From Ophelia neglecta (lineage: Eukaryota): a stretch of 64,000 nt of DNA. Within the stretch, counting starts at the first letter, position 1. Each line of letters begins with the position of its first letter. Below are positions 9,900 through 50,200 of this stretch, piece after piece. Position numbers and translations under genes: made by a program. The notes beneath the pieces were generated by a model. The model did no database searches and was not told the origin of the DNA. It saw only the letters and a program-made list of their open reading frames with translations. The stretch lies in NCBI GenBank assembly GCA_965285935.1, contig OZ260665.1:54746001-54810000 (forward strand), written 5' to 3'.

Positions 9900-11850
9900 A
9901 CTGAGGCCTCCTGACAGCAATGTTGCGCATACAAGAAAATGGACTGTGATCACTAAATTCATTATGATCCTGTACAAAAAAGTTCTATCAGAAGCTCCGA
10001 AGAGCGTTGATCAGGAAGCAAGTAATCAACAGTACTAGCTCAAGAAGGAGATAGGTATGTATAGCCACCCCCACCAATTAGGTCACCCTTCCATCCGTTC
10101 ATAATTCTCAACCCTATACCAATACACAAATCAATTAGCCTTTTTCCAAATGGGTTAACTTGGCCCTCCTGTGCATATGGAGGTACAAAAGTGTCGCCTT
10201 GGTGGTCCTCTGGCAACGGAACAGGACACACATTGTCAAAAAGTAAATAAAAGCTTGGGTCCTGTAATTTAGAAAGGTTTTTAGAAATGAGACCTTAGAC
10301 ATTCCAAGAAAGAACAGCAACTTGTCGGTCCGTATCCACAGGAAAGTACAATTCTGAATTAAGGTGTCCATAACAATAATCCTTTTGGGACGGAGTTCTT
10401 ATTTAATGTATCGGTTTCTTTGGCTGGCCCCGCGGATGGCATTTTGCTGGTTACGTCGTCCTGTCCACCGACCGCTTCTGCCGCCCCTGTCACTTCCGGT
10501 TGTACCGAAGCTGAGGACTGAGGACGAACAGTAGGGGAGTGTGATCCTTGCACATGGGGTTGGGGAACAGCCTCCTTCGCCTTTGACCTTGCCAGCTGTA
10601 ACTTGCTCTTACTGCGCACTGATTTCCTCCCGGACTATGACATTCCTGGGGAACAATGTGGGGCCCTATCGGAGTACCAGAAGGTGAGGCCATGTTTGCC
10701 TCCTCGTATTCCATATCACTGCCTTCTTCACGAATAGGAACAACAACTGGTGGTATTTTGCTTCCAGATGAAATAAGTCCGATATTTGGAGAGGCCGAGA
10801 GGTGGGTGCCAGGCTCCGGTCTTGTACCGCTAGAAACTGGTCGACAAAATGCTGGCCCCAGCACACGTGGGGGCTGGAATGTATGCACAAGCCAACATTT
10901 TCCATGCCCGGAACGTGAGACACAGATTCGGCCGGGGTGGGCCACCGCTGTTGACCGAAGATTGACGAGGGTTTGTCTTTGGCCTGACTGGCCCCAACTG
11001 CTGTCACATGACATGGAGGAAATGCCTGCCCAAACACGGTGGAACCTTGGGACTTATATCCCGGGAATGATTCGAAGATTGTTTGACCATCAGCTACAAG
11101 GGTGGCTGGAAATCTAATATAGCTAGCCTTGACTGTTCTGCGTAGTTCCATCATTTTTGGTACTAGTACCTTAAGCCTAATTGGCCTTGGATAGTCTTTG
11201 ATAGAGTTTGAAACAGCTTTATCGCTGCCACTTGTTTCGGCCGCCTTCAATATAACCTCTACAACCCAGCTATCTCTGAAACTGGCAATTAGTGGACGTG
11301 TTCTGTTTCTTTGACCTCTGAGTCTGTACACACGAAGAATGGCAATGTCGCGTACTGCTGCATCCGCCATCTTGAATTCTCCGGTCAAGAAATTACGCAG
11401 AACCTGTTCACAGTTTTCTCCAACGTTTTCATTGAGTCAGTGAAATAGTAAATTATCTCTTCGTGATGTCGCCTCGGTATCCAACAATTTCATGTCTAGC
11501 CTAACAAGAGTGTGATTTACCTGTTCATTTTGTAAACGTTGTTAGTTGAACTGTAGTTCGATTCCGCTGAGCACTGACCCTTGTTGATCCAGCTTGGCGT
11601 CCATGCTTTCCACAATGGCCAAAATCTCCTCGTGCGTACCAGACCCAGACGAAACACCTTCTTTAGTCGGAGTATGCTTATCGTCGAGCCGTTTTCCAGG
11701 CCGTGCGTCCTCCCTGCTATCAGATAAATTGCTTGTTTCCATCTTACGTTTGCAACTCCCATCGAAATACGATAATTTTGTGAAAATATCGGCAGAAGAT
11801 TGAAATGTGTTCTCCATTCCTGCACATGCGCAATGTCAATAAATGTAAAG
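9900..11850 (-). mobile_element. Decayed non-LTR retrotransposon (CR1/L2-group LINE): ORF1 plus endonuclease remnant
   Basis: The ORF1-like segment reads LLDTEATSRRDNLLFH*LNENVGENCEQVLRNFL...IAILRVYRL...RPLIASF (L1-ORF1/Transposase_22-like RRM motif, with an internal stop). The APE endonuclease C-terminal motifs NPFGKRLIDLC...IMNG..GD..GGGYTY, S*ASTVDYLL and SDHSP lie at ~9940-10230. Stops and frameshifts are present and no RT domain is seen. Confidence 0.8.
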
Positions 11851-12369
11851 TTCATTAGGCCTACTCATCGAAAACATAAAATTTCTTTTATTTATTTATT
11901 ACTGTCACATTTGACTATATAGGTTGATGTACTGATAAGAATAAACTATATTGATAAGAATAAACTTTATTGAACACTGCTTGTCCTGAGAATTGTATAC
12001 TGTCAGAAACTGTTTCTTTCCAACACCCAAAAACAACTTCAAATTATTTTAAAGCACAAACTAATAGAGAAATTCCTTGTATCGAAATACTTTGTAAACT
12101 GGAATGTTGCTAATAGATAATAGTAACGTTATGCATATTGTCGTACAAAAAAAATATGTTCTATCTCCCTGTACTTTAAATTAACATTATTTATTAATAA
12201 TTTATTGATACTCGTAACTCGGTATGTCGATACGTAATTTCAGACGAAACAGTCTCGGTCATAATCTGCCGCCCTTAGTTAGTTCATTTCAAAACAAAAT
12301 CGCAACGATATGTAAATAATGCAGAATTATTGAAACAAAATAATCAAAAAGTCACGAACTTGCATAACA

Positions 12370-12418
12370 TTTATTTGTACTGGCCATTTATATGTATATT
12401 TACAATGATGCGGACGGA
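12370..12418 (-). promoter_or_regulatory. G1 3' UTR: miR-184 7mer-m8 seed site (12412-12418) and AATAAA (12370-12375)
   Basis: The minus strand reads TCCGTCC, 36 nt, then AATAAA. Confidence 0.65.
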
Positions 12419-12644
12419 TAAGGATAAACTGCAAACATACTTTATCATTTCTTCCTTAGGAACAACTTAGATTGTAAGTTCTTTCTCAAATTATAATGTA
12501 TGCATAAGAGAAGTACCCTCGAATAATATACTTAGACATAGTGTGGAAATAACCGATTTATAGCAGGAGGGAAAACTGTCTGGTCTTGATAATACAGTCA
12601 TAATGGTTTACTTTAAAACATAATGTTACTTTTCTATAAGATGA

Positions 12645-13184
12645 TTACTTATGAACAGAAATACTAATGTCTATCTTTTTCCTGCGAGGACGAGGAATAA
12701 AGGCCCCATTGAGGTCGAATTCATACCATGGATTGCTGGAATGTGTACCTTGGTAAGCGGTGGCTGGAACTGGCACTGGCACTGGTGTTGGGGCAGGTAC
12801 TGGTGTTGGGGCAGGCACTGGTGTTGGAGTAGGCACTGATGTTGGTGCTGGAACCGGAGTAGGCGATGGAGTGGGAACAGGTGCTGGATTCGGGGAGGGT
12901 GTTGGGGCAGGGGCGGGCACAGGAACAGGGGATGGCGTAGGCAAAGGAGTAGGCGCAGGAGCGGGTGTTGGTGAAGGAGAAGGACTAGGCATCATTGGCA
13001 CTGGAGCTGGAGGAGGCATCATCGGCACCATGGGCCCCGAAGCTGGGTGTGGGATCATTGGTATCATTGGGAAAGGAGTTGGAGATGGCCGCAGGTCATT
13101 TGGGATGTAATGATCATGGATGCCATTAGTAAGACCTACGCCTCCACCTGTCCCAGCGCCCACACCATTACCATTACCTTCGCC
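12645..13184 (-). CDS. In-frame C-terminal continuation of G1 beyond the TAG at 13185-13187 (179 codons, PAPT-rich, ending NPWY...PRRKKIDISISVHK)
   Basis: Same frame as the 13185..14726 ORF (13184 to 13163 is 7 codons). It ends in the motif shared with the G2 and G4 C-termini and is followed by a 3' UTR with AATAAA. Confidence 0.7.
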   Translation of the reverse strand, partial: GEGNGNGVGAGTGGGVGLTNGIHDHYIPNDLRPSPTPFPMIPMIPHPASGPMVPMMPPPAPVPMMPSPSPSPTPAPAPTPLPTPSPVPVPAPAPTPSPNPAPVPTPSPTPVPAPTSVPTPTPVPAPTPVPAPTPVPVPVPATAYQGTHSSNPWYEFDLNGAFIPRPRRKKIDISISVHK

Positions 13185-16100
13185 CTAACCACTGAAATGA
13201 CGGTAACCATCATCATAACCATGCCGCCCATCAGAGCCATAAGAATTAACTTGATAACCTCGAGGGGGATATTTCGGTTCATAGCTATGATAAGTATCTG
13301 AGCCGTAGCCTGAATGTTGCTCAGAGCCATAGGCATGATTTGAGTTAGGGCCATAACCAAAATGCGGGTCATGAACATCACTGACACCTTCCGTACAACA
13401 TGTGTCGTAGCGTGGACAGTACACAGTACCCGGAGCACATCTCAGTCTCCTCCACTCTCCATTGACACACCATTGGTAGAAATCTCTGTCGAAATCTGGC
13501 CTCCTGTGACCATCGATACATCGAAAGAAGGGTCGATTTGGTTTGAATGGACCAGGAGGCATTGGTGTCGGCATAGGTGTCGGCATTGGTGTTGGCATAG
13601 GAGTTGGCATAGGGGTCGGCATAGGGGTTGGCATTGGTGTCGGCATTGGAGTTGGCATTGGAGTCGGCATTGGCGTCGGCATTGGTGTTGGCATTGGAGT
13701 CGGCATTGGTGTTGGCATTGGAGTCGGCATTGGCGTCGGCATTGGTGTTGGCATTGGTGTTGGCATTGGAGTTGGCATTGGTGTCGGCATTGGTGTTGGC
13801 ATTGGAGTTGGCATTGGTGTCGGCATAGGAGTCGGCATTGGTGTTGGCATTGGTGTTGGCATAGGAGTCGGCATTGGTGTCGGCATAGGCGTCGGCATTG
13901 GTGTTGGCATTGGAGTCGGCATAGGTGTTGGCATTGGCGTTGGCATTGGGGTCGGCATTGGCGTCGGCATTGGTGTTGGCATAGGCGTTGGCATTGGAGT
14001 CGGCATTGGCGTCGGCATTGGTGTTGGCATAGGCGTTGGCATTGGAGTCGGCATTGGCGTTGGCATTGGAGTCGGCATTGGCGTCGGCATTGGTGTTGGC
14101 ATCGGAGTTGGCATTGGAGTCGGCATAGGTGGCATTAATGTGGGAAATGGAGGCATTGGCCCTGGCCTATGCTTAAAGTAATGCTTGTAATATGGAAGGT
14201 GAGGGTAAAAAGATCCGGGAATAATCGCTTTGCCTGGGAAGTAATTGAAGGGCGACAGTGGATGATGTCCTGTAAATGGTCCGGCGCCCGTATGTGTAGC
14301 TGTTCCGCCTCCGGCGCCGTTTGCCTGGTTCATCATGTTCATAATGTCCTGGACTGTCATAGAATCACCATTTGGAGTATTCACGACTGAAATGCCCCCA
14401 CTTCCTGGGTAGATGCTCCCAGCGCCCCAGCTTCCTACAGATTTAAATTTGTCATAACCATATCCAAAACCGTTCCCCAAGTAGGAGGGATATGGCATGG
14501 TGCCGGGAGCCGGTGTGGGTGACACGGTAGTGGTGGTTGTCGGCTGTGGCGTCACTGTAGTAGCAGGAGTCGGTGATGGCGTCGGAAGGGTTGTCGCCGG
14601 GGTTGGGGCCGGACCAGGACCCGGAGAGGGTGTTTGACCGTACCCATAACCAGGGTACCATCCTCCGAAACCTCCCGTATCAAATTTAGGGTGCAAAATC
14701 AAAGTTATCTCTTTTACAGCATCCACGGGATAAGGTGCTTGCCATCCTGCTGAGTTACCTGAAATAAAAGTTTGTTATAATAATCACATTAATATTAATG
14801 AAAAAGTTATTAACGCAATGTGTCCATATTCTTTGATGCAAATAAAGACCCGACCATTTACAAACATATAACAATGATTCACGAGAAAGGTGATGGTAGG
14901 TCTGTACGTATATCCGATCTGGCACCATCCCATTACACAGTGGTAAACGATGGAATACCGCTCCTTTTGTTTATTTAACACCCCTACACTAAACACATAC
15001 GCGTTGACAAGTTTATGAGTTTAGCTGCAGGGGGTAGAGCGATACAACTTTTATTGCTGTTAGATTTTGTATTCATGTCGCATTAGCCGAGGTTTTCCAT
15101 GATGACTCACCTAACAATCACTGGTAATTACACCAGAACGATTTGTTCAACACTTTGTACAATTAATTGTTTACATGCAATAAAAGTATGGGCGAGTAAT
15201 TATGATAACCTAGTACAAGTGATTTATTTTCTTTCTGATGTATCTGAATCATTCACAGGTCTACTGAATTTATTCAAACTATTGGTAATCCATGCTCGAC
15301 TTTCGATTTATCTGCTACTTTCTTAAGCCAGCCATTCAGGCAACATGTTTACCTAATGCAGCAGTTCGATAAATTAATTGACTACATATGTCTGACGTTT
15401 GGTTTAGATTCTAATGAAGATACATCGATGATTTTAGCTATAACATTTCATAAGAAATTATCTAAAGCAAAACGAAATGGAACATGCAACCGACTCAGCA
15501 ACTGAGCAATACAATTAAAGAAGTTTAGAGATTTAGGCGGACTGGACGCTACACTGTAAAAATGTTTATGCTAGTTGGCAATATCAAAATTGACGAGGTT
15601 TATAAATCCGCCAAATATAATAGTCAACAACATTATACTCTGTTACTTACGCTCTTCAACGTAAATATTCGCCAGTATTTATAACTCTGAAAATAAGTTA
15701 AGATTGTGGCCACCAACAACTCGCCAAAATAAATATTTTCACAAATAAACACCCAAGGAGATATAAACCGGTTGACATAGCTGTCCGAGAAAATAACAAA
15801 TTTCTTGTGTTGAAAAGGCATCTTTATGAAGCAGTCCTTAAACTTTCAAATGCACGATAGAGTGCTGGTATATTTACCCTGTTAAGTTAAAGTTAAAATC
15901 CTTGACAGACCCATTTTCGTCAATATCAAACGAGAAACCGACTTATCATTTGTTAGTCGCCGCCAACATCGAATTTCGCTTAATTGAAAGTTATAAACAC
16001 TTTTTGAAGGCATGGTTTGCTCAGTCCCGAAGATATTTTACCCAGCATTTTTAGAGTATAAGATTGCCGAACTGATACATGCTACTATTTTTTTAATCAT

Positions 16101-16306
16101 CAACTTGACCAGTTGCCAGCATAAAGTTTTGAGCAGTATTCAGTCGGTAAAGTATGATCTTTTGTATATAATCAGACATGTTCTGAAGGAAAGGTAAGGC
16201 TGCTTAAACATGGTGATAAAAAGCGCAACAATGAAAATGAAAACTCACTACTTGCGAAAAATCCAACCAATATAGAAATTCCTATTAACAGCGATGTAGT
16301 CCCCAT
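13185..16306 (-). CDS. G1: secreted Pro/Thr/Met-rich protein with (PTPM)47 and a ChtBD2-like module; join(16249-16306, 13185-14758), 543 aa (723 aa if the TAG is read through)
   Basis: Exon 1 encodes [19 protein letters not shown] (signal-peptide-like), then A|GTGAGT donor. The acceptor TTTCAG|GT at 14758 is phase 1 and in frame with the ORF. Cys module at 13395-13520. Confidence 0.85.
13395..13520 (-). other. G1 ChtBD2/CBM14-like module CIDG...[29 protein letters not shown]
   Basis: Has the aromatic-x-x-C-x9-C-x-x-G-x-x-aromatic and C-x12-C spacing typical of peritrophin-A domains. Confidence 0.75.
13561..14124 (-). repeat. Coding 12-bp repeat, (Pro-Thr-Pro-Met) x about 47
   Basis: Read from the ORF; the variation I see is confined to synonymous positions. 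Confidence 0.95.
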
Positions 16307-16383: not shown

Positions 16384-16390
16384 TTTATAT
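16384..16390 (-). promoter_or_regulatory. G1 TATA box (ATATAAA)
   Basis: About 78 nt upstream of the ATG; an equivalent element is present in all four paralogues. Confidence 0.6.
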
Positions 16391-43936: not shown

Positions 43937-46623
43937 TCCCAGCCCAGATAGGGCAGGGTAGCTGGGATACGCACTACAGTCTTCTTCGGCGGTACGGCAC
44001 GACTAACAATTATAAGTCCACCCTTTCCATAGGCTTAGCTGACTTCTGATTCTCGGCACATGAGAGCCTTGGGGCACGGGTAATATGCTATTGCCCGCAG
44101 TAGCACGTTGTTATCTATGAATAGTGGAGTAGTTAATTCCTACTGTTAGTTATTATAATGTAGATGTGGAATGGCAATACAGTTATATTCATTGGCTACT
44201 ACTTGAATTCACCTAAAGTATCTGAACTTTATAATGGTGAAGAGAAACCTATCGATTAACCCTATATTTTTATTTTTTAGTTCCCTCTGCAATATTTTCA
44301 ACTAAATGTTTCCATCATTTTTCTTAAACTGCAGTATAGGCCCTATTTGTTTTCAAAAACATTCTTTAAAACGTACATCATAGACGGTGGGGAACCCCAA
44401 TATCTTCAATTATTTATAGCCGGAATCTACATGCCTCTTATTTCACTGACGCTACGCAGTTTTAGTATGTTGTTTCTATTAGCCTCAACTCCTTTACTTT
44501 AGTTAATTTATTATTTAAATTCATAATTGTGTATTCTTATACGTGCTTGAAGGATACCATTGGGTATAATGTCATAATTATTATGTATACCTGATTTTTC
44601 TTTTCTCTAGATAATCAGAAATTTATTATGCTTTATCATGCTTGGGGTGATATGAATAATATCATTTATCATTTAGAATTAATTGGAGAAAAATAATTGT
44701 TTATGTACTCATTTATCTTTGGCGCGATAATTTTTGTAAAGTGCTGCCCTGTAGCGACGACGATAGAAATTAATAAAATTGGCTAGTGGCGCCTCTTTTG
44801 GAATATTGGCTTGTTAGTCGCCTTCATAAATAGACATGTTTGTATCAATAAATAATTCAAACCCTTAACCGCTTTATATCAGTTTGCTTTATGGGTCACG
44901 GACATTGATTAATTCACCCAAACAGACACTCTTACTACCAACAGAACATAGTCAATGAGTTTGGCTCTGTTGCTTGGTTGATGTCATGTGATTGCTCCGT
45001 ATCCAGGCTAACAAACTGTGGGCGAAATTAGAGGAGTTTGGTATGTGAACAGAAACATAATATTGTGATACACCTTGGTTTACATCAAAATGGAATTGTG
45101 TCAGTCGTGAAAGCCCTAATATGTAAGCATGCTTATTGTTGATATTAATACGTGCTTGTATGATTTACAAATAACGTGTCCGACGACATAATTATAATAC
45201 GATAGTCATCTAACGTTACATGTGTTACGTTGCACCGGCTGTCAGCTTATCTTGTCAGTCAGACTAACCTTGTCATAAACAATATTAATTACGCTAATTA
45301 TTTTTTGCGCCATATTTTACCTGTTTTTATTAGTGGGGTGTACATTTAATGTTCATGGCAGTTAATGCATGTTATCTTCAAAGCCGGACGAACACATACA
45401 AAGAAACGCGTTGACAGCGTCCTACACAAATCAAATCAATAGTAATAAAGTCGATTAAGTTTAGGTACCGGTATACACACCTTGTTACCAGTTGTATCTA
45501 AGGTACCAAACATTATATTAATAATCAACCTTTAGAAGTGCAAGTGAATCGGTTTTATATTGTTACTCATTGGCAGTGTGTGGCTGATGCAAAAAGCGTA
45601 GAAAAGACTGTATAAAAACACCATGGGGTAGGCATCTAAGTTGGATGTACCACAAACTGAAACACATTTTAATACATACAATCTAGGTAGTGCAAAAAAT
45701 CTATTCAGCCAAGGGATATGGTGGGATGTCACATATAGATTAATTTTGAATAATGGAATCATTTATTGCTATAATCAGAAGTAGATTAATGTAGCTGTTC
45801 GAGCCTAAAAGTAAATGCAAATGCAAAATCATATTATTTTGGTTACGGTTCTTTACCCTAAGGGTGAAAGCAACAGACATGCAATGTATTATATGTCTGA
45901 CACTGGTGGGTATTAAGGATATGTTTTTTTTACGGATACAATGCGATAATTAAAAGGAAAAACTGTATTGTTAAAAAATTATACACTTCCAAACTGAAAG
46001 AGGGGTGATACAAAAACAAAATGAAAATCACACTGATAGTATCACTAGAGTTGGCCCAGGGCAAAATACCCACACAAACAGTATTTGTTTCAATGAATTA
46101 CATAATAAATTAGTATAAGAAGACATCACTTTATTAGTAACACATACTCTACATTGCCTATATTGGCAATATAGCAACATATAGGTCTCAAAAAAAACAT
46201 GAAATAAGAAAAATATCTATTAGCAATGAAGAAAATAGTAATCAGTTGGCAGTTTTTGACTTCCAAGACCCTTCCATTTGCATACCTATGGAAGTGTGAA
46301 TCTGTTTCAGTGAGTTACAGATTATTACCATGCACAATGAGACATAGAGAGAATTTTGATGATACTTTTCATATATTATTGTCTGATGCCTATCCAATCA
46401 GTATACATAGTGAGTTACTATAATGCCTCCCAGCATAGAAACAAGCTAACAAAAAGTAAAAAACTAAACTAAACCAATTTGTGTATTATACTGCTTTGCT
46501 GCCAGATCTGTTCTTGTCAATCCTGGTGTTTTTGTAGTAAAGGATGTCATGTCTAATATGTGTTTATACCTTAATCATTAATTCCTTTGTCTTCCTTGTA
46601 GGAGGAAAGAAGGAATCACTACA

Positions 46624-47254
46624 ATGGACAAGGAAAGTAAGGCAGCTGCTTCAGTTGAGAAGTATACTCAGCTTGGAAGTGAGGAGCTCCAAAAAGGAAA
46701 CCTTGCAAAGGCTACCGAATTATTTGAAGTTGCTTACAAACGGTCAGAACTGCTGGCAGATAGTTTCACATCCCGAGTGTGTGCCTTTAACCTGGGTGCA
46801 GTGTACATAGCTCATCGGCAGCCGGAGAAAGGCTTAGCCATGTTACAACATGCCATACCGCCTATGAGCCAAAAAGATGGAAAATCAAATGGAGATCTGT
46901 TCTATAATTTTGGTTTGGCCCATGAATTACAAAGGAATCCCAGTGAAGCTGCAAAATACTTTGAACTTGCACTTGAGGAGTATGGAACCGAAAAGGATAA
47001 CATCCAAATGGAGGCAGAAGTGTCTTTGAAGCTGGGATATTTATATTTTTCTCTGGGAAGTGCCCTTCAGTCCGCTAGGTGCCAAAGCATGGCTGCTACC
47101 TCTTTTGGCCGCCTTCAGAACTTTGGACAGCAGGCCTTGTGTTTGTGTCAGCAGGCGTTAGCTCTGGTACAAGGACACAAACTTGATGATGCATTAGAGG
47201 TGGCTGATCATTGTATGATACTGTGCCAAAGAGTAAAAGATAGTAACACATTGG
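46624..47254 (+). CDS. TTC24: TTC24-like first coding exon (TPR repeats)
   Basis: Acceptor CCTTGTAG| at 46601, ATG at 46624, donor G|GTGAGT at 47254; TPR motifs AFNLGAVY and LFYNFGLAH. Confidence 0.88.
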
Positions 47255-50200
47255 GTGAGTATCAAGCCATACATGTATAATAGTACATGTATCTCAATTT
47301 ATTTCAATTCAAAATGGTTTATCATCAAAAGAAATACAATATAGACATTAAAAGAGAAAATCACAAATACCAAAATATGAGGGCTGGACTCCTGAGAACA
47401 TGATAAAAAGATATGTGTTCCCTCATTAATGATATGATTCCATAAATGAACACCTGTAACCTTTACTGGTCTTGAAAAAGCAGGTGAATGTATGGCTTAC
47501 ATGTATGAAAAAGCTAACTCTTTGAAACTGGTTAGAATTCTTTAGGAAAGAAATGTTTTATATTGTTCAATTATTGCAATCTTTGGAAGTTTTCAAAGGA
47601 ATCTCTCATTAATAATGAGCCATGAGTTTATGACACATCATGATGCCGACGAATAGTTTTTAATCACATGAAAGTTTAGTTTGTATGTGCACAAAAACTT
47701 CGGTTGAAAAATGGAATTTTTATAATGTTGTTTGACCTAGAGTTGCCAAATGTGCCTTCTACCACAATTTATACGTGTCCTTTCTATCAGTGTGATATAT
47801 ATATTTCTCTGTTACGACAGGTAAAGTGTACAATGAGTTGGGACTGATATATACCCAGTGTAGAGATTTCCCCAAAGCAGCCACATGCTTTGAGCTGGGC
47901 TTGCCCCTCAGCCGAGGGCCCAATGAAGACAAAAAGCGAGAAGCAGTGATTCTGCAAAACCTTGGTGCTGTATATAATTCATTGGGAGATTACCAAAGAT
48001 CCCTTAACCTGCACGAGTCAGCTGCTAAATTACATGGTAAGTTATGGTACATGAGGTAACTTGGAATCAGGTTAGTTCCACCAGTTTTAGTACAGGGAAT
48101 CGGTAATTAACTATTAATAATACAGAGATGTATTGATTCAGGCAGCTGGTAAATAGAGAGATGTGATTCATTCTGGCAGCCATGTTAATTTATTGTATTA
48201 TGGGCTAAATGCATTTGAAATCCAATTATTAAAGACTATAAATACCTCAGGAAATCTATAAATTATGCTTCTAACATATTGTACTAACTTATTAAGTGAT
48301 TTTGGGATTAATTCCTGTAGCACATTCTCAACATAGTTACCAATATCACCCCCAGAAAAGAACTTCATATAAATGTTTATACCAAGCCTCTGAATATCAG
48401 ATATGATAGGTTACATGTGAACTGAAAAATGACATGTGTGGAGGAAGACTGCCAAAGCCAATAAGGAAACCTGTCCAATTCATTGATTTTACATATCTAC
48501 AATACATGTATTTAAATTTGATTAATGAATGTATAGAAATACATGTACAGAATAATCCATGAAGGAAAGTAAACATCTGACCATCTTGATAACAGGTGTC
48601 AGCAAAGAGGTGTTTACTGTGATCTGTGGCTTGATAACTTAGTTACTGTAATTTGAACCAAAATTTCAGGATATCAGAAATAAATTTAATTTAATTTATT
48701 GACATTTGATAAAAAGTTCACTTGAATTTGAATAACAGTTATGTACTTTTGTTGCAAGTAATTGATTCAAATTAGTCAATATTGAATAATGCATGTATGC
48801 AGACTGTATATGTATTTGTATGATCCCCAATACTAATGTCTATTGTAATTGTTGTACATGTATAGTGAAAATTCTGTATAGGGAAAGGCACTAAAAGCCA
48901 AACATGGTTTAGATCAATCAGACATCATGTTTTGAGGGTTATAACTTATGCTTTACAATTTAATGCAATGTAATGCAATTTGTATTTTAAATATTAATTT
49001 TATTAACATATAACATATATTTATTGCTTTCTTATTTTGAAGATATTTGAATTAATCTTATTCTTAGGTGAAAATGGACGGTTCAGACTTGAATAGCACA
49101 TTAAAAAATTAGTATATGTATTTATTTTTATTCTCTGAAAATTAAAAAATCAGTATGTATGTGTTATTATTCTCTGGTTGCAGCTGAGTTGGGTAATCGT
49201 GCAGCACAGGGCCAATGTTTTACTAACCTGGCTTTTACTCACAGTCAACTTGGGAACCATGAAATGGCTGGAGAAAGTTATCTACATGCCCTTCTGGCAG
49301 CTAAAGACACCAGTAAGTAGCTATCCACATGCCCTACTTGCAGCTAAAGACACCAGTAAGTAGCTATCTACATGCCCTACTTGCAGCTAAAGACACCAGT
49401 AAGTAGTTATCTACATGCCCTTATGGCAACTAGGTACACTAGTAAGGAGTTATCTACATGCCCTGATGGCAGCTTAAGACACCAGTAAGTAGTTATCTAC
49501 ATGCCCTGATGGCAACTAGGTACACTACCGGTAGTAAGGAGTTATCTACATGCCCTGATGGCAGCTAAAGACACCAGTAAGTAGCTATCTACATGCCCTG
49601 ATGGTAGCTTGCAGCTAAAGACACATTTGATAATTTTTGCCAAGCATTTCATAGCATACAACTGCCACATTTACAAAGCTGTGTTTTGAGTTAAAGACAA
49701 AATTATATATTTTATTAAAGGAACTAAAAATGTCTAAACAGGTAGGCTGGTTTTGTTTAGTTAATATGGATGTGCATTTTTTGATATCTTGCTAATTTAT
49801 TTTAATTTTTAACTCATGAAACAGTTTGAACTTTTCAGATGACCTCCATGCTCAATGGCAGGCAGCTGAGGGTTTGGGGGTGGTGGCTTTCCACGAGCAC
49901 AATGTGGACAAGGCAATCAGGTACTTCAAACAGGCCCTCTCAACACTAGCTCTCTCCCAGGAGAAAAACCCAGAGGCCCAGGAGAGAATCGTGGCTAAAC
50001 TGACAGACTGCCTGGAGTACCAGGCCACCAAGTGTGCTGGCGAGTTCAAACAACCCAAGGTCAGTGTTCAGGTGTAATTGGCATATTGGAAATACGGTCT
50101 GTAGAGCCAGGGAATAACAAGTTGTACACAACACAATTTTCTAGCAACTAATGGAGATAAATATACAGCCTGAACTCTAAAAATCAAATCCAATTTCAGG

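Follow-up and report, generated by a model that had tools for sequence, protein, structure and literature searches.

Does the gene G1 carry a true stop codon within its reading frame and, if so, has the protein been shortened or is the stop passed by the ribosome? This gene is one of four paralogs (G1-G4) encoded on the minus strand of a window of 64,000 nt, the whole stretch of DNA analysed here, which belongs to contig OZ260665.1 of the genome of an invertebrate, probably a lophotrochozoan, of 762 Mb in 223 contigs. The minus strand reads TTC AGT GGT TAG GGC GAA GGT AAT GGT AAT GGT, where TAG (13187-13185, codon 544, in the context GGT TAG GGC) is in frame. The first-pass annotation had described a single in-frame TAG in G1 just ahead of the conserved C-terminus, and this description is borne out by the minus-strand sequence.

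The spliced model of G1, in which exon 1 is joined to exon 2, yields 543 aa up to TAG and 723 aa in total, reproducing the lengths that had been announced for a short and a long form. Its ATG is located at 16306, 83 nt downstream of a TATA-like box (16384..16389; this and all the features of G1 given below are on the minus strand) with a putative function. The coding part of exon 1 (16249..16306) encodes a hydrophobic leader of 19 residues that resembles a signal peptide, and is followed by a phase-1 donor (gtgagt, at 16248). The predicted intron 1 (14759..16248) has a GC content of 0.35 and a T-rich acceptor (ttttatttcag), and exon 2 begins at 14758. Three elements are encoded upstream of TAG: an N-terminal copy of an alternating-hydrophobic motif, KEITLILH (14691..14714), present in the short form, whose likeness to the terminal motif was established with a regular expression and by eye; a (Met-Pro-Thr-Pro)n repeat (13558..14131), uniform and uninterrupted in the protein and encoded by variable codons, with DNA units only 86% alike; and a six-cysteine domain of the CBM14/peritrophin-A type (13395..13520). 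The second stop, TAA (12645..12647), is found in the context CAT AAG TAA TCA, which is common to G2. The 3' UTR holds the heptamer TCCGTCC (12412..12418), which we take to be the seed match of miR-184, and the first AATAAA past the second stop is at 12370..12375, none being found between TAG and TAA. Apart from its stop, G1 had been considered intact on account of its TATA box, its splice sites, the synonymous-only variation of its repeat, and its miR-184 site. All four claims hold in the predicted model, and mir-184 genes are indeed present in the genome.

A fifth paralog, G0, lies ~13-21 kb before the window, also on the minus strand (~54.725-54.733 Mb of contig OZ260665.1). This multi-exon gene, whose exon joining is predicted, encodes two CBM14-like domains as well as Thr-rich, acidic, and elastin-like Pro-Gly-Gly-Val-Pro-Gly-Phe blocks, and ends in KKKKLSITLDFHRRRRR. 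A cysteine-rich domain is present in all five paralogs. The domain of G3 matches the Pfam model PF01607 (CBM_14) with 29.2 bits (cut-off 22.1), and the cysteine domain of G1, which gave no match to PF01607 at E 0.1, aligns with it. When a structural model of the G1 domain (pLDDT 83, from a five-row alignment) was submitted to Foldseek, ranks 1-9 were occupied by CBM14-type or related chitin-binding-like structures, with probabilities of 0.95-1.0 and E values of only 0.03-0.9. In addition, the family profile matches the chitin-binding tails of chitinases. The domain of G1 is predicted to adopt the CBM14 fold, a small all-beta Cys-rich fold, and G1 is predicted to be a secreted structural gene of the chitin-binding type. 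A separate signal-peptide exon was found by scanning G1-G3, while the same scan found none for G4. G3 ends just after its CBM14 domain, without the terminal motif, and holds only the N-terminal copy. The possibility that G3 and G2 were exons of one gene was rejected, as a separate signal exon belongs to each of them and a TGA terminates G3.

In lophotrochozoans, the matrix proteins with ChtBD2 domains, such as the tube proteins of Paraescarpia echinospica, share with G1 a CBM14-like domain and a tandem expansion and, according to the accessible part of PMC8476170, have a role in the extracellular matrix; the G1 family has predicted signal peptides. However, the cysteine spacing of G1 differs from that of these proteins, G1 misses the Pfam model, and no description of the G1 protein family was found in the same part of that article. 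Searches for homologues yielded no orthologue of G1. With residues 395-703 of G1 the search was swamped by Pro-Thr repeats, and no family member could be recognised by name or domain among the 120 of 344 matches listed, while none of 223 candidates scored with residues 403-555. No orthologue was found among 1.84 billion representative sequences, where the six matches obtained were all limited to the cysteine domain; the best of them (P0121) carries this type of domain twice, together with a comparable terminal strand. A metagenome scan gave 55 pattern matches, none of them confirmed, and the genome itself, outside the G1 cluster, only weak and uninformative domain matches. Every paralog shows, at one end or at both, a short basic strand of alternating hydrophobic residues, and a similar one is observed near the C-terminus of P0121, an unnamed distant relative. 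This strand could serve in assembly or sorting.

The existence of the stop in the DNA was examined in three public runs, available as contigs under one sample label and none of them recorded as RNA; contigs of this kind drop variants. TAG appears in the contigs of all three, with a word depth of 24, 35, and 10, respectively, and no alternative letter is observed at 13185-13187. Run X1 is identical to the window. Run X2 differs from it at 12870, 13327, and 13376, on both sides of TAG, and run X3 at 12500, 12515, and 12780, and TAG is kept in both; the divergence between runs is 0.24%. A base-call or assembly error, the other origin that had been envisaged for the codon, is contradicted by these data. 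The assembly may itself derive from one of the three runs, and the sample label is common to all of them; nevertheless, the site is not in a homopolymer and two runs hold TAG on backgrounds with other SNPs, so that such an error is very unlikely. The TAG of G1 is a real germ-line stop codon.

No sense allele was seen in the three runs, which represent one sample label and contigs only, and searches of the genome itself found neither a second copy nor an alternative haplotype of G1. Under a rough model in which the assembler chooses between bubble branches as by the toss of a coin, a heterozygous TAG would be missed with a chance of ~0.125-0.25. The disjoint SNP pattern of the runs would arise with a probability of 0.0145 if they were three independent draws from one diploid, and of 0.13 if X1 were phase-correlated. 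According to this rough model of a single sample label, TAG is probably homozygous or present on several haplotypes.

What lies beyond the stop is not random sequence. The frame remains open for 179 codons (12648..13184), as had been claimed, running through a Gly/Asn stretch, a Pro/Met stretch, and PTPVPA-like repeats to PRRKKIDISISVHK, followed by TAA; its end is the terminal family motif RRKKIDISISVHK (12648..12686), to which the ends of G2, G4, and G0 are similar. Counting G1 by its 723-aa frame, this motif is common to four of the five paralogs. The last 40 residues are the part of the tail with the fewest repeats. Of 20000 base shuffles of the same stretch, no more than 78 left it open, and the other two frames contain 6 and 9 stops. 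The repeats of the tail, compared at lag 6, differ mostly at third positions (35, against 22 at first and 13 at second positions). Because of the few open shuffles, the third-position bias of the repeats, and the family motif at its end, this continuation is considered to be derived from coding DNA.

An open tail does not by itself imply that it is translated. In a survival model that combines codon-specific stop rates with indel rates taken to be 0.05-0.15 per substitution, the frame would still be open with a probability of 0.84-0.94 at a neutral divergence of 0.24%, of 0.49-0.76 at 1%, and of 0.03-0.25 at 5%. Since such a frame stays intact at ~1% neutral divergence, no read-through is needed to explain it, and according to this model the stop is either young or read. 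The SNPs lean weakly towards continued constraint on the tail: the two that fall within it, at 12780 and 12870, are both synonymous, and the two located between the CBM14-like domain and TAG are both non-synonymous. The probability that two out of two are synonymous under neutrality is ~0.08, a value based on too few sites and on SNPs that may predate the stop.

The codon that preceded TAG can be approached through a paralog only. The proposal that the stop occupies the place of a tyrosine was based on the repeated SGYGNGNG of G2, where S-G-Y-G is in fact found at 12 of the 13 S-G-x-G sites. This part of the argument stands; the other part, the correspondence with G1, is looser. As the SG(stop)GEGNG of G1 is close to, but not identical with, the sequence in G2, we infer a tyrosine ancestry rather than regard it as shown. 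The paralogs encode Tyr only by TAT or TAC, both one substitution away from TAG, and the ancestral codon would have been one of these two. A reassignment of TAG to Tyr throughout the genome would make the codon sense in all genes, and only the position of the TAG codon speaks for it. Four long frames of the family contain 147 TAT/TAC codons (a few of them in intronic leaders) as compared with one internal TAG, and we consider this reading practically excluded.

The stop could also be removed from the mRNA by splicing, a route that the first-pass annotation had not considered. If TAG|G acted as a 3' splice AG, a phase-0 donor upstream would rejoin the frame, either CAA|GTTAAT at 13250, defining an exitron of 66 nt, or GGT|GTCAGT at 13385; alternatively, a phase-1 acceptor further downstream, at 13147, could be used. 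Weak donors in phase with the TAG|G acceptor do exist, at 13250, 13376, and 13385, and the paralog G0 has a donor-like GTAAG directly after its CBM exons. The 20 nt that precede TAG contain 8 T and 4 C, as compared with 10-11 T in the acceptors taken as true (those of three of the four paralogs, G3 being left out). However, a competing CAG, from which no open frame continues, lies 7 nt upstream of TAG, and the in-phase donors match two to four of the seven consensus positions, none of them being GT[AG]AG, while the inferred true donors of the family are GTGAGT or GTAAGT. Moreover, the would-be intron encodes Gly/Tyr/His sequence like that of the family and has a GC content of 0.45, versus 0.35 in intron 1. 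Splicing is thus an improbable way out of the stop.

Editing of A to I, which would convert UAG to UIG and insert Trp, had also been proposed. UAG is the triplet preferred by ADARs, which is the point in favour of this mechanism. The stable duplex that it would need over the A was not found: the target is unpaired with a probability of 0.92-1.0 in five of seven folds, and the two in which it is paired (probability of being unpaired 0.20 and 0.32) are the shortest and are unremarkable. No partner in the pre-mRNA surpasses the controls, as the best duplex reaches -31.4 in comparison with a control median of -31.85, and 14 of 26 controls, computed with a coarser step, are as good. In addition, the family shows Tyr, and not Trp, at S-G-x-G. 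Editing is accordingly given very little credence.

A different kind of rescue would take place on the ribosome. If near-cognate tRNAs decoded TAG part of the time, whether as in a pseudo-pseudogene or as a programmed event, G1 would produce two forms, one of 543 aa with a single motif and one of 723 aa that has a motif at either end. Most of the observations that favour functional read-through also weigh against a young allele. TAG persists on contigs with distinct SNPs, being kept in X2 and X3, and is apparently not restricted to the haplotype that was assembled; the tail, without a second lesion, is of low complexity and probably disordered, and ends in the motif of four out of five paralogs; and both of its SNPs are synonymous, a weak hint. 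The extensions of fly genes subject to read-through are more disordered, according to the available part of PMC13278127, and a precedent is Ir75a from Drosophila sechellia, for which the full-length protein has been shown and read-through is neuron-biased (Prieto-Godino 2016, as cited in the portion of PMC7244557 consulted). G1 and Ir75a have in common a premature stop in an ancestral frame with an intact downstream part. Contrary to Ir75a, G1 is of the secreted structural type, to which a neuron-biased rescue is ill suited.

The signals around the stop argue against read-through. In flies, its marks are a C in position +4 and an A in position +5; there are also read-through genes without known cis-signals, some of them with UAG, and a baseline rate of 0.5-2% is reported for cell lines (all from the available part of PMC13278127). 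In mammalian cells, purines at +4 favour termination, which the accessible text of PMC5829715 documents with UGA and in the form of a genome bias. The site in G1 is UAG-G-G, with G at both +4 and +5, and presents neither a leaky context (UGA, +4 C, +5 A) nor a 3' stem beyond chance. Seven folds around or after TAG are of unremarkable stability, as z ranges from +0.51 to -1.11 when dinucleotide shuffles are the reference and from +0.82 to -1.34 with synonymous shuffles.

The first-pass annotation had compared the site with the gammaretroviral signals, and half of this comparison can be maintained. As in the gag-pol signal, a G and a run rich in purines come after UAG; 7 of the 8 positions of this run, GGCGAAGG, are purines. 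The signal of murine leukaemia virus consists of an 8-nt spacer and a compact pseudoknot (from the part of PMC4178896 available), and this defining feature fails in G1: after an 8-nt spacer, no H-type pseudoknot with Watson-Crick stems of at least 4 pairs was found, and allowing G-U pairs gave two weak 4-pair solutions. There are only 7 C in the 60 nt after TAG, and the richness in purines is what Gly/Glu/Asn codons give. No stem or pseudoknot exceeds chance, no other paralog has an internal stop, and an open tail is also what a young allele would leave. Read-through of whatever kind is considered unlikely. Its more specific version, that TAG is fixed in the species and read at a set rate, so that one gene gives two secreted matrix proteins, is slightly less likely again. 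The extension of that version to function is held with equally low confidence: the short form would carry one N-terminal assembly strand and the long form strands at both ends, acting as a cross-linker, with no known cis-signal involved. Among the matches listed by a literature search, no paper on lophotrochozoan read-through was found, a result that does not prove absence.

The reading that we favour, and consider likely, is that TAG is a young and tolerated nonsense allele (TAY>TAG), and that the tail is a relic that has not yet decayed. This had been put forward as the simplest explanation and is the best supported, given a real stop, an open tail, and the lack of known recoding signals. 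A single-base change would have converted a tyrosine codon into TAG, so that translation would end at residue 543 and the 179 downstream codons would be left behind undecayed. A stop in the last exon can evade junction-dependent decay, and the mRNA of G1 may escape in this way; its 3' UTR would lengthen to ~800 nt, which makes a length-dependent decay possible. The 543-aa product would retain the signal peptide, the N-terminal motif copy, the MPTP repeat, and the CBM14-like domain. Because this outline matches that of the intact paralog G3, within a tandem family of five genes, the truncation is probably tolerated, and the allele could have drifted to homozygosity or high frequency.

Natural nonsense alleles offer a close parallel. 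In flies, ~35 of them are carried per haploid genotype, with an excess towards the 3' ends of genes and an enrichment in genes with paralogs, and most are rare, according to the accessible part of PMC5888714. Like these alleles, G1 has a single-base stop in a late position, in a gene otherwise intact and belonging to a family with several paralogs. The difference lies in frequency, as the stop of G1 may be homozygous or present on several haplotypes.

As a nonsense allele, the TAG of G1 would be ordinary, since the genomes of wild animals carry tens of them. It would also constitute a natural deletion of the conserved terminal motif, which could help to assign a role to this motif. If TAG were instead fixed and read through, G1 would represent a non-neuronal pseudo-pseudogene or an isoform switch in a lophotrochozoan, setting the make-up of a chitin-protein material.

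Several minor observations concern miR-184 and the surrounding DNA. TCCGTCC occurs within 700 nt of the stop in all four paralogs of the window, where ~0.01 would be expected for each, the sites on the minus strand being at 12412-12418, ~22969, ~33543, and ~39540. In the whole window it is found five times on the minus strand and never on the plus strand. This distribution suggests a miR-184 control common to the paralog family. A 19-nt motif of miR-184 is matched exactly at 16 sites of the genome; 14 of them are on contig C12 (64882577-64942421), most of them ~159 bp apart and in two arrays, which may be an amplified microRNA cluster, and the two copies on C5 correspond to mir-184 precursors of Rfam. 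Just 3' of G1, the region 10490-11864 (minus strand) shows by eye frames that resemble fragments of LINE type (ORF1-like and endonuclease-like), one of which was compared with Pfam and gave no match. Also by eye, a retrotransposon-like element with long open frames of 600 and 1304 codons was recognised at L016:1803-8050, and an exon resembling the N-terminus of an HCN channel at L015:1-498. Finally, the plus strand of the window encodes at 46582-47280 an exon of a TPR protein, 40-45% like proteins from Tubulanus, Saccoglossus, Owenia, and Ptychodera; five of its six matches, which come from nemerteans, hemichordates, and annelids, are strong.
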